Shown here: positions 10,757 through 30,402 of the stretch, piece by piece | How the letters are laid out: each line of letters starts with the position of its first letter | Numbering within the stretch: position 1 is the first letter of the stretch | From: an uncultured Nitrososphaeraceae archaeon | GTDB lineage: Archaea > Thermoproteota > Nitrososphaeria > Nitrososphaerales > Nitrososphaeraceae | Direction: 5' to 3' | Length of the DNA stretch: 35,935 nt | NCBI GenBank assembly: GCA_963837175.1 | Contig: CAWIMJ010000015.1 | Location: 1 to 35,935 of the forward strand | Program-made: the position numbers and the translations under genes | The notes under the pieces: model-generated | The model's database searches: none | The model's input: only the letters and a program-made list of their open reading frames with translations | Told to the model about the DNA's origin: nothing

Positions 10757-11260
10757 ATGTCAAATAACTCAAATACTGTGTTAACTATGTTCTACATAGT
10801 TACATTCATTGTGTGTGTCTCACCTTTAGAAACTAATGCACTTAGCACATTTGATCAGACTGACAATATTGCTTTGGATAACATCCAGGCTTCCGATACC
10901 TCTAATCGCACAAGCGGTGGTCTTAATTCATGGGTATGTTTCACAGAATTCGGTCAGACAGATTGTAATGATATGTCAAATGCTTCAAGTACATATATAG
11001 GACTAGCAGCAGGAGCTGCAATTGGTGGAGGGATAAGCTGGTGGATTTATAACCGACAGAATAAGACTTCTCGTAAGCAAGATGATATTCTAGACTCCAT
11101 TAAGGAGATTGAACGAAAGAATAAAGAAATATTGACACATTTAGAGTCATATGCAAAACACCATGATTTAGTTTTAAAGAAAATACTTCACCTAGACGAA
11201 CACATAGAAGCATTAACCAAAAAGATCGAAAGTACAGCACAAGAAGATCCTCATTCCTGA
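10757..11260 (+). CDS. Signal-peptide + single-TM + coiled-coil hypothetical protein
   Basis: Hydrophobic N-terminus, TM segment YIGLAAGAAIGGGISWWIY, C-terminal heptads. Confidence 0.65.
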   Translation: MSNNSNTVLTMFYIVTFIVCVSPLETNALSTFDQTDNIALDNIQASDTSNRTSGGLNSWVCFTEFGQTDCNDMSNASSTYIGLAAGAAIGGGISWWIYNRQNKTSRKQDDILDSIKEIERKNKEILTHLESYAKHHDLVLKKILHLDEHIEALTKKIESTAQEDPHS

Positions 11261-11576
11261 GCAAAGGAATTTGTTAATCATCAAAGTATAGGACTACACC
11301 TTTAGTAACATCATTGCTTTAATTAATGATCCTAATGATGTTGGTAATTGTCGTGGCAAAGTATTTGAGCCATGATCCTTTAGCAGCCTGAGATTATTAC
11401 ATAGTCTTTAGCAAGAGCATTCCCAATCTATTTTAAGAAGAAGGATATTAAACAAGCAGTAAATCTTGCAACTGAGTGATTCAATACCATTTACTTGGTG
11501 ATTAAAAATGCTGCTAAATATTTAAGATAAAAACGGTCAACAACAATATAATATAGTTAATAAAAAATAAGGAAGG

Positions 11577-11681
11577 CTAGTTAGCAGCAATTAAAGCTGA
11601 TGCTTCTTGTGCTGAATCGACTAATGCTATTCCCAATCCGCCAGATATGAGAGCTCCTATGATTGCTAATAGTTTTCTCAT
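11577..11681 (-). CDS. 34-aa signal-peptide-only precursor MRKLLAIIGALISGGLGIALVDSAQEASA|LIAAN
   Basis: ATG at 11681, TAG at 11577. Basic n-region, hydrophobic h-region, polar c-region, A-S-A signal peptidase motif, 5-residue tail. T-rich terminator-like run follows the stop. Below the ORF-track length cutoff. Confidence 0.75.
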   Translation of the reverse strand: MRKLLAIIGALISGGLGIALVDSAQEASALIAAN

Positions 11682-12902
11682 TAACTAATTATGGGAAATC
11701 TACTACAAAAGTGTTATGGAGCGGAGATATTGACTCTTCAGCTGACGATGGTAGAATAGTGAGATATCATTGATGGTACTGAAAGAGATGGCGGACAAGG
11801 ACAAGTTCAATGAGACTGCCGAGAACATGATTTTTGCCCTGTCTTTAGAAAGATAGAATATAGCAATAAGCTACAAATGAAGAGACTAGATAAGGTTTCT
11901 ACACCAAAGAAAGTATTGTTCATAGAACTGAGTATATTGGTACTTGGAATTAGATTACTCGCCATAGGCCTTCAATCACCTGCGTTTTCATAACTACTCC
12001 AATGTGGATATGATCATGGGATGAACAACATACGTATCAAACAGAAGAAACTACATGTAATAATAATCAACCACAAATTTATAACGGTAATCAAGAGCAA
12101 GCAAAAGAATAGTAACAGCTATTGTCAACAAAATTGCAGCTTATTTTATAAATATTCAAAATCTATCAGATGCTGATTCTTTTAGTAAAATAAAGCAGTG
12201 GATTTTAAATAGTAAAACCAAAGGCCTGGGAATGGCTGTTTTTTCTAACTAAAACGTTTGTAATAAGATGTTAGAAAATAATAACTAATAAGAGTTATGA
12301 AGCAAAGAAAGATACACAAATCAATATAATATATACTCAGAATATGAGCAACAAAAAAGAGAAGTAGGATATTTTCATTAAATTTGTTTCATTTAACCTT
12401 CTTAACAGAAGAGTATTACGGCTGCAGGAATACCCTGAACTCTATTAATATCTGTTATTCTTGAATGTAGTAGATATGCGAATTTATGTTAGTTAGTATA
12501 TAATATAGAGAGTAGTAGAACTTATTTTATTAGTTTTAGTAGTTCTCCAATTTAGGCGCGCTGCCCAATTTCATGTGGTTATCAACAAAAGTAAGTGAGC
12601 TATAATTGCTTTTATTGTTCAGCAAAAATATTTTTCGACTAGGCGGTGCGAAGTAAGAAAACTAATAAACGCTTACCATTGAATTTAGAGGACTCTATAA
12701 AACATGAATGCGCAATAATAGAGCCGCGCGCCGACAGGAGAAAAGTTTGTTTTATGGTAAGTAGTTTTATTATTAGTTCTCTTTATTTTATATATTGACA
12801 AATTTGGTTGTGGCTGCAATGAAGAAGAGAGAAGAGAATAAAAAGAACAACCCAACGCAAATGAACCTGTAGTAGTTCGTTTCACAAATTCAATTAGTTA
12901 AT

Positions 12903-14227: not shown

Positions 14228-14597
14228 ATGACGATATTAACTAGACAGGAAAGAGAAAGACTTGTACTAGAGCTTTACAACCTAGGTAAAACTTATCGTG
14301 AAATATCTAAAGAGGCAAGAATATCTCCACGTGATATAGGAGTTATTTTGAATAAGGTAGTTGAAGAGAAGAAGAAAGAAGGATTGAAGAGGAATAAAAC
14401 AAGAAGATAATACTGATGTTGAGAACAACGAAGAACAACAACTATCTCTATCGACCCAAGCATACAAACTCTTTTCTGAAGGTAAGACTCCATTAGAAGT
14501 AGCTATTGCATTAAACCTAAGAGAGTCAGAGGCAACTAAATTCTACAGAGAATATTGGAAGCTAAAACAACTACACAATCTGAATATGGTTTATGAA
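14228..14597 (+). pseudogene. HTH-coiled-coil family gene, 5' part
   Basis: LVLELYNLGKTYREISKEARISPRDI HTH, a frameshift, then LSTQAYKLFSEGKTPLEVAIALNL...WKLKQLHNLNMVYE; breaks off at 14597. Confidence 0.8.
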
Positions 14598-18996: not shown

Positions 18997-19080
18997 ATTG
19001 TTTTTGTCTATTTTCTAAAGATTTAAGCATTTTTTGTTTTAGTTCCTTAAATTAAACTAGGCCATAACTTTTTCCACATA

Positions 19081-19950
19081 AGCATACAAACTCTTTTCAG
19101 AAAGTAAGACTCCATTAGAAGTAGAAATTGCATTAAACCTGAAAGAGTCAGAGGCAACTGAATTCTACAAAGAGTATTGGAAGTTAAAGCAACTACACAA
19201 TCTGAATATGGTTTATGAAGAGATTAAAGATGACATTGCATCATTTCTAAAGTTATACAAATTAGCAAAGGCCAAACGTATGGGAATTCAGCAAGTTGTT
19301 GACACTCTTGCAATTGCAAATAACGATTTACCAGCCATTGAAGAGAGAGTCAAAACGCTAAGAAATGATACAAGTACGCTGCAATTTCAAAAAGGTATAG
19401 ATGAAAGAAATTTATACCAATTGAATAATCAAATAGCAGCAACAACTAAACTCTTGAATTCTTTTCGTATATCTTGTGAAAGAGAAAGAAGAGAAATGGA
19501 ACATCTACAGAATGAAAAGGCAAGACTCGAGGCTACTGTAACTCAATTTAAGAATAATAATGAAGAATACCTTGATAAAATAAAACAGGTAGCTTATGAA
19601 GAAGTGAGAAGTGTATTAAATGACAGTAAATTACTATTGAAAGTTGCTACTCTCTCAATAATTGAAGCATTAAGAAGGAACTCTGAATTATGTGAATTTG
19701 TAATGAATGATGATTCAGATCAATACTACTATCTGTATATGGACGTAACTATCCTTCGTTAATGTTATCAGGACGACAGCAACAACAATCATTTAATGAT
19801 ACTTATACTGCTTTGATATTAGAAGAGTCTGAAAAACTTTACAATGAGTTAACAACAGAGTTGACAAATAGGGCTGTATCAGCAGCTGCAGCGATGAGGG
19901 CATCATCGTTACCATCACCAGCTAATAACACAACCAGAAACTACCTATAA
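19081..19950 (+). pseudogene. HTH-coiled-coil family gene, 3' part
   Basis: Starts AYKLFSE..TPLEV; first 139 bp are 128/139 identical to 14459..14597. Long coiled coil; frameshift near 19730. Confidence 0.8.
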
Positions 19951-20597: not shown

Positions 20598-21038
20598 ATG
20601 GTTATAGTGTCAAAAGATCTGACTAAAATAATTACTTTTCCTAAAGAAGAGGAACCATCTCTCAAAAGGATTCTAATTGTAGATGATGATCCTGATATTA
20701 CTATAACCTTCAAAATAGCTTTAGAAAAGGAAAATGATAATAAGAAAGAATTTGAAATTCATACATTTAATGATCCTCTATTAGTATTATCACAATTCAA
20801 GCCAAGTTTCTATGATCTATTGTTAGTTGATATTAATATGCCAGGTATGAATGGCTTTGAATTATGTACAGAGATATTAAAAGTAGATCTTAATGTCAAG
20901 ATTTGCTTTATGTCTGCTGGAGAAGTAAATCACGAAGCTGTAAGAGAAATATATCCAACCATAAGTATAGGGTGTTTTATAAAAAAGCCTGTTGCAATAG
21001 ATTATTTGGTAAAGAGAATAAAGGCAGAGTTAGAGTAG
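20598..21038 (+). CDS. Single-domain response regulator (receiver)
   Basis: RILIVDDD, LLVDINMPGMNG (phospho-Asp), FMSA, IKKP. Confidence 0.92.
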   Translation: MVIVSKDLTKIITFPKEEEPSLKRILIVDDDPDITITFKIALEKENDNKKEFEIHTFNDPLLVLSQFKPSFYDLLLVDINMPGMNGFELCTEILKVDLNVKICFMSAGEVNHEAVREIYPTISIGCFIKKPVAIDYLVKRIKAELE

Positions 21039-22468: not shown

Positions 22469-24090
22469 CAACTTAATACTATTGATGTTTCGAAACTGGA
22501 TTGATATAATCTTTTGTAACTCTAGGACGAAATAATATGACATAATGACTTTTATTTGTTGATTTATTGAGATAATTTGCCACCATTGAAGGTTGTTGTA
22601 GATAATTTCATTCTTAGCAGATTGATTATAGCCACAATCATATAAGAACCGATTGAACAGAATTTGATGTGTTCAAGTTATTGAAAATATTAAGTCATAG
22701 GTTAGCGTTTTAACAAAGATAGTTTGAATATTTACCAAATTCAGCATTATCTCTCGCCTCGTTTAATGTGTGATCCCTTTTGTATCTCATTCAATACCTC
22801 CTCTATCATTAGTTTTTACATCTTCTTCGTCAGGATCTGTATCCATATGGCTTCTCATCTCATCCGACAATTTGATTTTGTTGGCAAGTGGTAGGACCCT
22901 CTTTTCTATTTCTCGTTGCATTTCTGCCATTCCTATCTTCTTCAAGACATCAGCATCAACTTCTAAGCCTTTATAGATCTCTCGTCGTAATTCACTATCT
23001 CTAGAAACATATGTTGCACATCCGAACATTCCAACAAGAAGCATATATGATGATAGTCCTAAGAACAAAAGCGTGACAAGTCCAAACGGGGGATATGCTC
23101 CATAGAATGGCATTCCTGGTTGCATTGAACTAAATAATGAGACAATACCTATGGAAGAAATTATCAAATAGTTTTTCAAACCTTTTCGTTTCATTTTTCT
23201 TCCAATAATCAAGAAGGCAATAGCGAAAAATAATCCAGATACTTGATAGCTAATTCCAAAGATGACCTGGAATTGCTGGGAGTATATAATTTCAACTAAG
23301 GTAGGATCAGTTACTAAGTTTGAATCTCTTACAATAAATGAGAAAACTTGGTAGAGTAATGGAATACCAACTATTAGCCAGAATCTCTTCTTTCCAATTC
23401 TGTTTGCATAGGGTTTAAGTAATAAAGCCGTGAGGATCCATGAAGATATTATCATCAGAGGCAAAACATAGTTTCCCAGTCCATAGATGAATGCAATATC
23501 ACTAGAGGGAACAATTACGCCCGTAATTAGAGATGTATAATCTCTGGGATATATCAACTGAGACTGATTCGTAAACTGTTGTGTAAGCAACGGAACAGTG
23601 ATTAAAATTAGAAATAGAATCACACTGAAAACAACTGCATAAATTAGGATTGAAAAAGATGTAGCAAATCTAAACCATTGTATGAATATTAAAGATAGGA
23701 TTCCAAGTATAATAGCAGACCAAATATGACTGAGATATACTACTAATAATGAGAATATCTTATTATATTCATGGAAAATAAGCATTTCTGAGATCATGAT
23801 AAACAATATGAGCGATATAGTGTATTGGACTAGGGATGTACCAATATAAGTAACTTTAAACAATAATGGTCGACTAGTTGTCGAATGAATATCATTTCTT
23901 TTGGCGGATAGGCAGCAATATGGTATTAATTATTGAAGAAACGATAACAAATGATGCAAACAATAACAAATGCAAATTGCCAGGAGTTCCTAAATCAGTT
24001 CCATAGAAAATGTTAATGAACTGAGAGTCCACTATGGTAAGAACAACTATAAGTGAAATCAGTATAAGTGCCTGCTTGCTACTACTTAAT

Positions 24091-25140
24091 AGACATATTG
24101 CGTAATTATGAAAGAAAATCTCTTTACGATGGTCAATCTTAATCTATCTGTTTTTAGAGTAACATCCCACCATTAGTTCGCATTATTCTGAAATTCACCA
24201 GTCCTGAAACTATGTCTGAAGCATGATCATATCTTCCAAGCTTGTTTCTAAATTTAATACCATTATTCCAAACTTTTTAATTCTGCATATAGTGTGCTCT
24301 ACTATTACCCTTAGTTTGGAATGCTTTCTATTATGTTTCTTTTCTCCACCTGACAGTTCACTTTTCCTTTTCTTTCTAAATGGTAGTACATACTTTACAG
24401 TGGGAAAATCATTTTTAACTCCCATGTAACCAAGGTCAAGGATATTCTCAACTTGCATTGGAGTTGTAGGATGTTTATTTTTGAAAATCTCATAATCATG
24501 TATTCTTCCCCGAGCATGACCTGTTTTGTGCAGTATGGTACCTTCATTGTTTACCATATATTGTGTCTTGATAGTATGTTTCTTCCTTTTACCCGAGTAA
24601 TAGCTCTTCCTTCTCCTTTTGTTCTTTGGCCTTGGGATCTCTTGTTCAGTAGAGTCTATGAAAGCCTTGAAACCAGGAAAGTACTCCTCAACTTCGTCAA
24701 CGGTTCTAAGCCTTCTGGCACGCTTGTACAATTTCTTTGGCAATGGAACACATCGTTTGATGAGTGGTTCGAGTATAGATATGTCTCTGCATACATTGCT
24801 TTGATTGAGATTAAATAGAAATCCTGATAACGTAAAGGTAATGTACAATCTGTAATAGACCAGAAGCATCAGGAACCTTTCTCTGACTTTCAGCTTGAAT
24901 GGTCTACCAGCACCAACATCTCTTTGTCTCTTCCTATTGGAAAGACGCTTTCTTTCATGCTCACCGTATTTTGATTCTATTTCTTTGGAAATGACATCAA
25001 ATTCTGCTACAGCCAGTCCAGTAAACGATTTGAATAACAACGGTCTTCTTGATAGGCTAGCATAAGACATCAATGGAGTATCGAATATGAACGGATCAAT
25101 GAAGAATAAATCTCTAAGCTTTCAATTACGCAAGAAATAT
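24091..25140 (-). mobile_element. IS5-family insertion sequence
   Basis: TIRs AGACATATTGCGTAATT / ATATTTCTTGCGTAATT (13/17); AAT target duplication at 24088-24090 and 25141-25143. Confidence 0.85.
24210..25073 (-). pseudogene. IS5-family transposase (HTH_Tnp_4 / DDE_Tnp_4-like), C-terminal frameshift
   Basis: FKSFTGL, GAGRP, IDSTEQEIPRP, YYSGKRKKHT, DLGYMG, RVIVEH. The true C-terminus KFRNKLGRYD...GLVNFR continues in another frame. Confidence 0.88.
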
Positions 25141-25794
25141 AATGTACTAACAATAGAGAGCATAATCTTGGTCACACTCCATATGTCCTGTCATTAAGCA
25201 AGGAAGTAAAAACTGACCTCTTCATATTAAATATCTCTGCTAATGCCAGGATCGCTCTTATTAACTAAATGTTTCAGCCAATCTCAAGCGAAAAGATGTA
25301 TTCGCTCTACCAGATAGCAATACTGGTACAATTATACTTAGGTTTAGAAGAGGACGTCGTGGCGGTGATGGTCCCAACAGATGGGTGATAATAAGTAATA
25401 TACATTCATCAAAGAGAATTGGATAATTGCTATAAGTCCTCATAATTTTATTTCTATGTCAGAACTTTATACATTGCAAAATTTGATGAATTATAATATA
25501 GGGTAATACTTTAACAAACAATTTGGATTTTGACTTGTTAGCCATTGGAATAATGTCTTATAACAATATCACTTTCTAAATATACCAATTAATATAATTA
25601 CGCTGACATTACTTTAACATCATGATCATACGTTTTAGACAATAATAGATTTAGCTAAGTTAGTAAGCATACAACCCTAGATATGAGAAATTACCTAGTT
25701 GGAGATGAGTAAGCATATTTATCTTAATTGGTATACTTAGACAATAATGATGTTAAACATCAAATCTACTGAGTTAGATTACTAACTCTTATCA

Positions 25795-29940: not shown

Positions 29941-30402
29941 TTGCAATTAACTGAGGAAAGAAAAAAACGGGTAATTGATCTATATTTTAACGAACATAAA
30001 ACCTACGCCGAAATTACACAAATAATGAAAATGTCACCCCGTGACATACACACTATTATAAAGGAAGAGAAGGCTAGACGACAAATATATAAACATGAGA
30101 AACATCAACAGCAAGGAGAGCTATCTTCCAAAGCCTACAAACTCTTTTCTGAAGGTAAGCGTCCTGTAGAAGTCACTATCGCACTAAACTTGAGAGAGCT
30201 AGAAGCAACCAAATTGTATAGAGAATATTGGAAACTAAAACGATTGCATATACTCAATTCCATATACAAAGAGACATATAGTAAATTAGGGCCATTTTTG
30301 AAATTATATAGAAAACTAATAAAGCAAAAAGGTATTAGTATTGAACAAGTAAAGGGCGTTGCTTCCATCCTTAGCTTTCATATAAAACCTTCTATTTTTT
30401 AA
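29941..30402 (+). pseudogene. HTH-coiled-coil family gene, 3'-truncated
   Basis: RVIDLYFNEHKTYAEI...MSPRDI, LSSKAYKLFSEGKRPVEV.IALNL, YREYWKLK. Confidence 0.75.

Follow-up and report, generated by a model that had tools for sequence, protein, structure and literature searches.

A Nitrososphaeraceae family of Asn-ended micro-proteins that combine a predicted signal peptide with a variable pentapeptide tail

Can a gene of 34 codons, all but five of which appear to encode a signal peptide, be a real gene, and what would its product be? This question is raised by a micro-ORF (open reading frame, ORF) in contig CAWIMJ010000015.1 of an uncultured archaeon of the Nitrososphaeraceae (assembly GCA_963837175.1), of which we analysed positions 1 to 35,935; this whole stretch of 35,935 nucleotides is called the window below. 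According to both the ORF list and the sequence, the micro-ORF occupies 11577-11681 on the minus strand, starts with ATG, ends with TAG (11577-11579) and encodes the 34-aa product MRKLLAIIGALISGGLGIALVDSAQEASALIAAN. A sequence-only reading of this DNA had described it as a signal peptide with a five-residue cargo, LIAAN, followed by a T-rich run, and as far as the design of the sequence goes that description is borne out. Residues 1-29 (11595-11681, minus) form a predicted Sec-type signal peptide, with a basic MRK start as n-region, an 18-residue hydrophobic stretch, LLAIIGALISGGLGIALV, as h-region, and a polar c-region, DSAQEASA, ending in Ala-Ser-Ala at -3 to -1; read from the sequence, the copy thus has the n-h-c design, with Ala at both -3 and -1. 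Residues 30-34 (11580-11594, minus) are LIAAN, the pentapeptide predicted to be released, and its last residue is the one that is invariant in the family described below. An oligo-T run, TTATTTTTTATT (11559-11570, minus), starts 7 nt past the stop, contains T6 and is a candidate archaeal terminator; a sigma-70/hairpin scan, designed for non-archaeal signals, found no hairpin terminator (0). We give an even chance to the reading that the product consists of a Sec-type signal peptide plus a pentapeptide and is exported as an X4-Asn peptide, and we rate it that highly because it leaves the biological role open.

One argument for a gene is that the micro-ORF has relatives. With the window peptide alone as query, two micro-ORFs were found in another genus, the first 58% identical (E 3.7e-6, residues 2-34) and the second 62% identical (E 3.0e-4); both are 35-36 aa long and end in Asn followed by the stop. 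To several family members the window peptide is 56-65% identical, and family ORFs are 31-40 aa long. A 6-row profile matched 44 of 151 Nitrososphaeraceae genomes (E<=0.1), spread over 12 of 18 genera. A 41-row profile, at E<=0.001, matched 9 of 73 genomes of this taxonomic family and 1 of 227 genomes from the other families of the order, and this last match lies inside a 183-aa frame and hence is not a member. Among 1.84 billion representative proteins, the same 41-row profile found 265 clusters at E<=0.001, 12 of them at E<=1e-10. The best 150 of these 265 are almost all 31-55 aa long, with a match that extends to the C-terminus, and in 132 of them Asn is the last residue, which answers positively the earlier suggestion that a search should turn up short ORFs of the same pattern with a conserved terminal Asn. 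Nothing in Pfam or NCBIfam scored above the curated cut-off for five family members, the ESM Atlas held no usable match, tblastn against phage records gave no match, and a literature search at the level of titles and abstracts found no description of this family. Sequence comparison therefore presents the micro-protein family as new and unnamed, and as confined, among the genomes searched, to the Nitrososphaeraceae. None of the six single-contig genomes sampled (G007, G020, G052, G062, G095 and G122) is among the 44 family-positive ones, which may explain why the family has been overlooked.

The way in which these relatives vary points to selection on a protein. Conserved residues are encoded by multiple synonymous codons, as in one Gly column with GGT 15, GGC 23, GGA 8 and GGG 1; the terminal Asn is AAC in 33 cases and AAT in 15, and all three stop codons (TAA, TAG and TGA) are used after it. 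A conserved DNA motif in place of a protein was rejected on these grounds, as the stop and Asn codons vary. In 717 of the 724 pairs that were informative, the proportion of non-synonymous differences fell below that of synonymous ones (pN<pS); the median dN/dS was about 0.41, and the pairs are related, partly saturated and non-independent. Twelve rows of the codon alignment have no nearby start codon and represent decayed copies or same-locus duplicates, and the family thus also turns over. A chance ORF, or a shard truncated by a nonsense mutation, was likewise rejected on the family evidence (the profile matches, the terminal Asn and pN<pS), and we take the micro-ORF at 11577-11681 to be a genuine protein-coding gene. 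The sequence-only reading had named homologues that run on into a long secreted protein as the observation that would undo it; for the family this is not the case, longer relatives being rare oddities. Four database representatives (P0001, P0002, P0005 and P0096) have Trp and further residues after the terminal Asn, and in two of them a second family unit follows; these look like TGA read as Trp in gene calling with code 4, or like a change from TGA to TGG. At one locus (L065, 4542-5069, on G063:C69), ...ALN is not followed by a stop and the frame continues for about 130 codons, with the leader out of frame, which could reflect a frameshift in a longer relative or a mistake in the assembly.

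What is kept and what is allowed to vary within these 31-40 residues? The common features are an MRK start, a glycine-rich hydrophobic helix, a Pro...Ala-x-Ala site of the signal-peptidase type, a tail of mostly five residues and the terminal Asn. In 41 aligned members the terminal Asn is the sole invariant column, and K3, A10, G14 and A29 (window numbering) are each at least 90% conserved; the window copy keeps all of these (K3, A10, G14, A29 and N34). Of 196 unique family sequences 178 end in Asn, and in 177 of these 178 a pair of small residues at -3 and -1 occurs 3-13 residues from the end. Ala takes up position -1 in 168 of the 177, and position -3 is filled by Ala in 139 and by Val in 30, counts that are biased toward A-x-A by a site-picking rule that preferred it. 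A Pro lies within -7 to -3 in 95 of the 177. The tail beyond the site comprises five residues in 128 of the 177, four in 19, three in 8 and 6-13 in 22, and there are 94 distinct sequences among the 128 pentapeptides: position 1 is mostly Gly or Ala, positions 2-4 are variable with often Leu, Met or Phe at position 4, and position 5 is always Asn. LIAAN itself is found in four distinct family sequences, including the window copy and, for example, L063. The same contrast emerges between paralogues of one array, where identity (33 within-array pairs, 7 arrays) is 1.00 for the Asn, 0.73 at +1, 0.69 over the six residues before the site, 0.49 over the hydrophobic segment and 0.31 at +2 to +4. With 31% identity, the inner three tail positions are the most variable of all, and the variable tails that had been foreseen from the one sequence are thereby confirmed. 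To judge from these alignments, the variation is that of a conserved processing frame around a hypervariable tripeptide, which is the signature of secreted ligand or core peptide families.

Many members follow one another head to tail in arrays whose period is about 115-120 nt, with eight copies on one contig and, elsewhere, four, three plus one, three, and two. The position of a copy within its array goes together with the signals around it. By a crude word list, a TATA-like word at -42 to -17 precedes 26 of the 43 copies that come first or stand alone and none of the 13 internal ones (background 13%). A Shine-Dalgarno-like (SD-like) word at -16 to -4 shows the opposite distribution, being found ahead of 11 of the 13 internal copies and of 5 of the 43 that are first or solo, over a background of 9%. 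Finally, a run of five or more T within 40 nt of the stop marks 25 of the 43 copies that stand last or alone and none of the 13 that are followed by another (background 9%). Such a pattern would be expected if the first cistron is leaderless, the internal ones are SD-driven and an oligo-T run acts as terminator, and it constitutes strong indirect evidence of expression. For the window copy the T run is present, and the TATA-like and SD-like words were both scored as absent. We infer that the window copy is translated, and its expression is uncertain because neither a TATA-like box nor an SD-like site was recognised in the 60 nt 5' of its ATG (11682-11741, minus).

How, then, would a product of this kind be handled by the cell? 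Given the length of the ribosome tunnel, a 34-mer is released before its hydrophobic segment can be read co-translationally, and targeting would therefore have to be post-translational. Once off the ribosome, the peptide would insert into the membrane with its N-terminus inside, as its basic MRK start suggests, so that a 13-residue C-terminal part would reach the outer face. There, type I signal peptidase, for which Pro...Ala-x-Ala is a textbook site, would cut after Ala-Ser-Ala and free LIAAN outside the cell, its free C-terminal Asn being the feature that the cell or a partner would recognise. Across the family, many X4-Asn peptides would be made in this way, often from tandem polycistronic arrays with diversified inner residues. 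Export plus cleavage, taken by themselves, we hold to be somewhat on the probable side. As for what the freed peptide might do, use as an extracellular cue, for instance in cell-cell or self signalling, appears the most likely, and a signalling role as such still seems rather unlikely to us. At the far end of this line of thought, these would be the first ribosomal, Sec-exported peptide pheromones of Archaea, with arrays supplying an X4-Asn repertoire, inner residues conferring strain or paralogue specificity and the Asn being read by a sensor. We consider this an unlikely proposition, of which a bolder variant would have a neighbouring phosphoribosyltransferase-like (PRTase-like) protein phosphoribosylate the terminal Asn before export.

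Neighbouring genes were compared by clustering ORFs of 70 aa or more from the surroundings of 45 non-redundant loci and of the window, many loci having only 1.5 kb of flank. According to Pfam, a Pribosyltran-domain protein of ~240 aa, the PRTase-like protein (PRT), recurs at 13 loci, and a DLH/alpha-beta-hydrolase protein of ~230-250 aa at 12. One or both occur at 17 of the 46 loci (11 genomes, 6 genera) and both at 8, where three of the PRT/DLH loci are near-identical duplicates within one genome. The usual layout is PRT, then the micro-ORF or micro-ORFs in the same direction, then a convergent DLH, the genes being 2-220 nt apart; at two loci the array is placed 5' of PRT. Both enzyme families are widespread, PRT being found in 133 of 151 genomes with about 287 matches (~1.9 per genome) and DLH in 112 of 151 with about 159 matches (~1.05 per genome). 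When 16 more high-scoring PRT loci were inspected, a micro-ORF was absent from 13, and the other 3 showed either a remnant or a divergent family member; DLH accompanied none of the 16, whereas it is present at 8 of the 13 PRT loci with a micro-ORF, in a comparison between loci that are related and non-independent. As judged from these gene neighbourhoods, the association of the micro-ORF with PRT and DLH is real but partial, since both enzyme families are common on their own, without micro-ORFs. The PRPP (phosphoribosyl pyrophosphate)-binding loop, of the DDGAATGAT type, and the Ser and His columns of the hydrolase are invariant. The closest solved relative of the PRTase-like protein is the hypothetical protein TT1426 (PDB 1wd5, E 4.9e-43). 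Co-folding of PRT, DLH and micro-protein from one locus returned a score of 0.00, which gives no verdict and is not evidence either way.

Besides PRT and DLH, Pfam identified Response_reg proteins among the recurrent neighbours (7 loci) and left three families without a match; a helix-turn-helix (HTH)/coiled-coil family recurs at 4 loci. For the receiver and HTH/coiled-coil genes, adjacency by chance is plausible because these families occupy 20-34 places in the window's genome, and both were set aside as partners (response-regulator queries match 22 and 34 places, the HTH/coiled-coil family 20). The earlier suggestion that the stand-alone receiver at 20598 in the window might be an output of the system holds insofar as the Response_reg domain is real; its link to the micro-ORF is unsupported, and a receiver 9 kb away is uninformative when two queries of its family match 22 and 34 places in the genome. 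Seven loci (L036, L037, L038, L045, L049, L053 and L064) have a secreted protein of 215-240 aa next to the micro-ORFs, in which a KWWQW motif is conserved and the sequence ends in ...VTYHITVK. Neither Pfam nor NCBIfam matches it, and its AlphaFold model (mean pLDDT 67) gave weak beta-sandwich and chagasin-like matches in Foldseek (TM 0.2-0.4). No ThiF/E1-like (MccB-type) enzyme is among the recurrent neighbours of the 46 loci or the 10 window ORFs scanned, no other known enzyme of ribosomally synthesised and post-translationally modified peptides (RiPPs) recurs at the loci, and no TPR-type receptor (Rap, NprR, PlcR, PrgX or AimR) was detected by Pfam in those 10 ORFs or recurs at the 46 loci. 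SBP_bac_5 proteins occur in 139 of the 151 genomes, with or without micro-ORFs, so that their presence would permit re-import by an oligopeptide permease but is not informative. One genome, G093, is flagged as unpublished: its loci L028 and L061 are counted in the 56- and 63-member sets and in the 196-sequence set, and it contributes 1 of the 13 PRT loci, 1 of the 12 DLH loci and 1 of the 7 receiver loci. Alignments A3 and A6 exclude both loci. Furthermore, G055 and G093 are included in the SBP_bac_5 and DLH genome tallies, and G093 also in the 44 of 151 and PRT tallies. No claim made here depends on L028 or L061 alone.

Several known systems come to mind, and none of them fits throughout. The precursors of Bacillus Phr and arbitrium AimP, which are of the RRNPP type, are encoded by ORFs of ~40 aa with a Sec-type signal peptide, an active peptide of 5-6 residues at the C-terminal end and diversified paralogues. 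The family described here resembles them in sequence design, being a short signal-peptide precursor with a predicted mature peptide at its C-terminus and diversified paralogues. However, it has no sequence relation to them (no Pfam or NCBIfam match), it lacks a pro-region, the predicted signal-peptidase cut yielding the final pentapeptide directly, and its loci have no adjacent TPR-type receptor gene; conversely, the invariant terminal Asn, the tandem polycistronic arrays and the archaeal host are peculiar to it. Membership of RRNPP thus fails, for want of a sequence relation, an adjacent TPR receptor or a pro-region in the sequences compared. The enterococcal inhibitor-peptide genes (PrgQ/iCF10 type) and streptococcal SHP genes are signal-only micro-genes as well: their very short hydrophobic precursors release a peptide made up of the last few residues, and this design they share with the family. 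Their precursors are about 22-23 aa long, give hydrophobic 7-8-mers upon a cut by an intramembrane protease inside the membrane span, are exported by a dedicated ABC transporter and lie beside Rgg or PrgX, and none of these features, including the Rgg/PrgX adjacency, was seen at the family loci. MccA, the precursor of microcin C-type compounds, is a very short ribosomal peptide with an obligatory C-terminal Asn that is the site of enzymatic modification, and a C-terminal Asn is likewise invariant in the 41 aligned members here. MccA, however, has no signal peptide, whereas one is predicted here, and it is encoded beside the ThiF/E1-like MccB, where the micro-ORF loci have PRTase-like and DLH-like neighbours instead. 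Lastly, type I toxins such as Ldr, Ibs and Hok-like peptides are hydrophobic single-helix peptides of 20-50 aa, often in tandem, and resemble the family arrays in being small hydrophobic helix peptides in tandem copies. They differ in having neither a signal-peptidase site nor a conserved C-terminal residue, and in being paired with antisense RNAs.

The window is about 33% G+C and gene-poor, and contains a DDE transposase and multi-copy repeats. The region 11288-11823, which includes the micro-ORF, has no DNA match in 40 related genomes, and the convergent 167-aa gene next to it (10757-11260) is 85-86% identical in two same-genus genomes, directly after which the sequence diverges. Just 5' of the micro-ORF lies a multi-copy repeat (11800-12120), parts of which match 10 other places in the genome at 75-100% identity, and many places in same-genus genomes. 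A profile search of the window's own genome, covering 108,702 frames of 20 aa or more, recovered two family copies. The second (G000:C52:28595-28720; L071 6596-6721, minus) ends in ...IRIGN, has no in-frame ATG, GTG or TTG and is, from its sequence, probably a pseudogene; the window copy is a lone orphan in its genome. No micro-ORF lies beside any of the PRTase paralogues of this genome. One of these paralogues (G000:C43; L073 1495-2322, minus) has an extra N-terminal hydrophobic segment that is faintly like the micro-protein helix (3.6 bits, non-significant). In same-genus genomes, a 90-aa secreted protein with a family-like leader, one of the rare longer relatives, and a 23-aa Asn-ended fragment lie directly 3' of a PRTase-like gene in one case (G002:C38, L007/L013), and an 18-aa leader remnant lies directly 3' of such a gene in another (G003:C25, L081). 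The PRT-linked module seems, from these sequences, to have decayed in the window's genus. Copies or fragments of the HTH/coiled-coil family occur in the window at 14291-14594, 19067-19591 and 30001-30396, and at about 20 places in the genome. The same family directly adjoins micro-ORFs in three other genomes (L027, L033 and L042), and it may mark variable or mobile regions.

The sequence-only reading had also looked to the window for a receptor, and here it fared less well. It had linked a stop-riddled hydrophobic frame downstream of the micro-ORF to a polytopic protein at 22747-25163. The letters of that frame do exist (about 11400-11490, minus), without significant resemblance to the polytopic protein: with the 358-aa protein as tblastn query and 11200-11760 as a tiny database, no match was better than E 3.8, and the frame was rejected as a remnant of a multi-transmembrane gene. 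What had been taken as one protein is in fact two, namely a polytopic membrane protein with at least seven hydrophobic segments (22787-23863, minus) and, adjoining its gene, a DDE_Tnp_4/HTH_Tnp_4 transposase (24210-25073, minus). The upstream frame of the membrane protein is broken by stops, and an insertion element may for that reason have truncated it. The membrane protein has paralogues that are 88-90% identical on contigs C36, C34 and C42, and among the paralogues on these and other contigs none adjoins a micro-ORF, so that this family finds no support as a linked receptor.

Which other explanations could account for the same observations? The most serious of them holds that the product is never cut but remains in the membrane as a single-pass micro-protein, with its N-terminus inside, a 13-residue tail outside and a Gly-rich helix that packs on itself or on a membrane protein. 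Its role could be that of a small regulator, of a subunit or of a stress peptide that forms pores, and Ala-x-Ala...Asn would be a recognition motif on the outer face. The helix invites this thought, as it is strongly conserved across genera, with the consensus AI-GALI-GG-GI, and as an h-region of 18-21 residues suffices to span a membrane. Its pattern of small residues (G9/A10/S13/G14/G15/G17, of which A10 and G14 are at least 90% conserved) goes beyond the generic needs of a signal peptide, and because of this the conservation suggests that the membrane helix has a function of its own. Tandem arrays of small hydrophobic peptides are, moreover, typical of bacterial type I toxins, and the hydrophobic segment of the C43 PRTase paralogue resembles the family, if faintly and non-significantly. 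An anchor, however, has no obvious need of a near-universal Pro...Ala-x-Ala at a fixed distance from the end, paralogues within an array agree best in the c-region, at +1 and at the terminal Asn rather than in the helix, and the inner tail positions diversify like those of a ligand or core peptide. We therefore regard an uncleaved membrane micro-protein as a doubtful, if respectable, alternative. The exported X4-Asn peptide has further points to contend with, apart from the helix and the bias of the site-picking rule toward A-x-A. We know of no instance of a signal peptidase from archaea cutting a substrate that has only five residues past the site; no receptor-like gene recurs beside the family at the 46 loci; and the models used for the own-genome search and for the search of 1.84 billion proteins included the window sequence itself. 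The window copy, for its part, has no PRT, DLH or secreted neighbour and no counterpart at the syntenic site in same-genus genomes, and with neither a TATA-like nor an SD-like word found 5' of it in a word scan it could be silent.

A different route to an Asn-ended product would be a modified peptide, akin to RiPPs or Trojan-horse compounds, in which neighbouring enzymes act on the terminal Asn in the cytoplasm before export and release by signal peptidase. The PRTase-like protein might use PRPP and the DLH-like protein might serve maturation or self-protection, with an antimicrobial or a modified signal as product. Such a role would suit the presence of one or both genes at 17 of 46 loci and their convergent layout at the 8 with both, seen against the background per genome, as well as the enrichment of DLH at PRT loci with a micro-ORF (8 of 13 against 0 of 16 further PRT loci, the loci being related), the invariant PRPP-binding loop and hydrolase Ser/His columns, and the invariant C-terminal Asn, a hallmark of microcin C-type precursors. 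Post-translational targeting of a 34-mer would also leave time for modification in the cytoplasm. However, about two thirds of the loci, the window included, have neither enzyme nearby, the enzymes are widespread without micro-ORFs, as the genome counts and the 13 of 16 further PRT loci without one attest, and no ThiF/E1-like or other known RiPP enzyme recurs as a neighbour. We know of no precedent for a PRTase acting on a peptide, and we deem a modified precursor quite improbable. Compatible with any of these readings, finally, is that the window copy is a relic, dead or silent, in a stretch rich in repeats and transposases. The missing TATA and SD words, flanks (11288-11823) without DNA match in the 40 related genomes, the multi-copy repeat just upstream, the startless copy on C52 and the mere remnants beside the PRTase gene in same-genus genomes are all in line with decay. 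Set against this, the ORF is intact from its ATG onwards and keeps every conserved family residue, its LIAAN tail is common to three other distinct members, an oligo-T run lies past the stop, and 17 of 43 first or solo family copies also fail to match the crude TATA word list. A relic is in our estimation improbable, and the X4-Asn peptide released from a Sec-type signal peptide remains the reading that we prefer.

The family is large, clearly coding and unannotated, and its architecture has one economical reading, the export of a tiny Asn-ended peptide. A literature search at abstract level gave no account of peptide-based cell-cell communication in Archaea, and through the X4-Asn prediction the question of whether archaea use secreted peptides becomes directly testable. 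The hosts are soil ammonia oxidisers, and therewith relevant to nitrogen loss from soils. The family furthermore offers a first functional handle on the widespread pair of PRTase-like and DLH-like genes, and it illustrates the biology that is hidden in ORFs below the usual annotation length.

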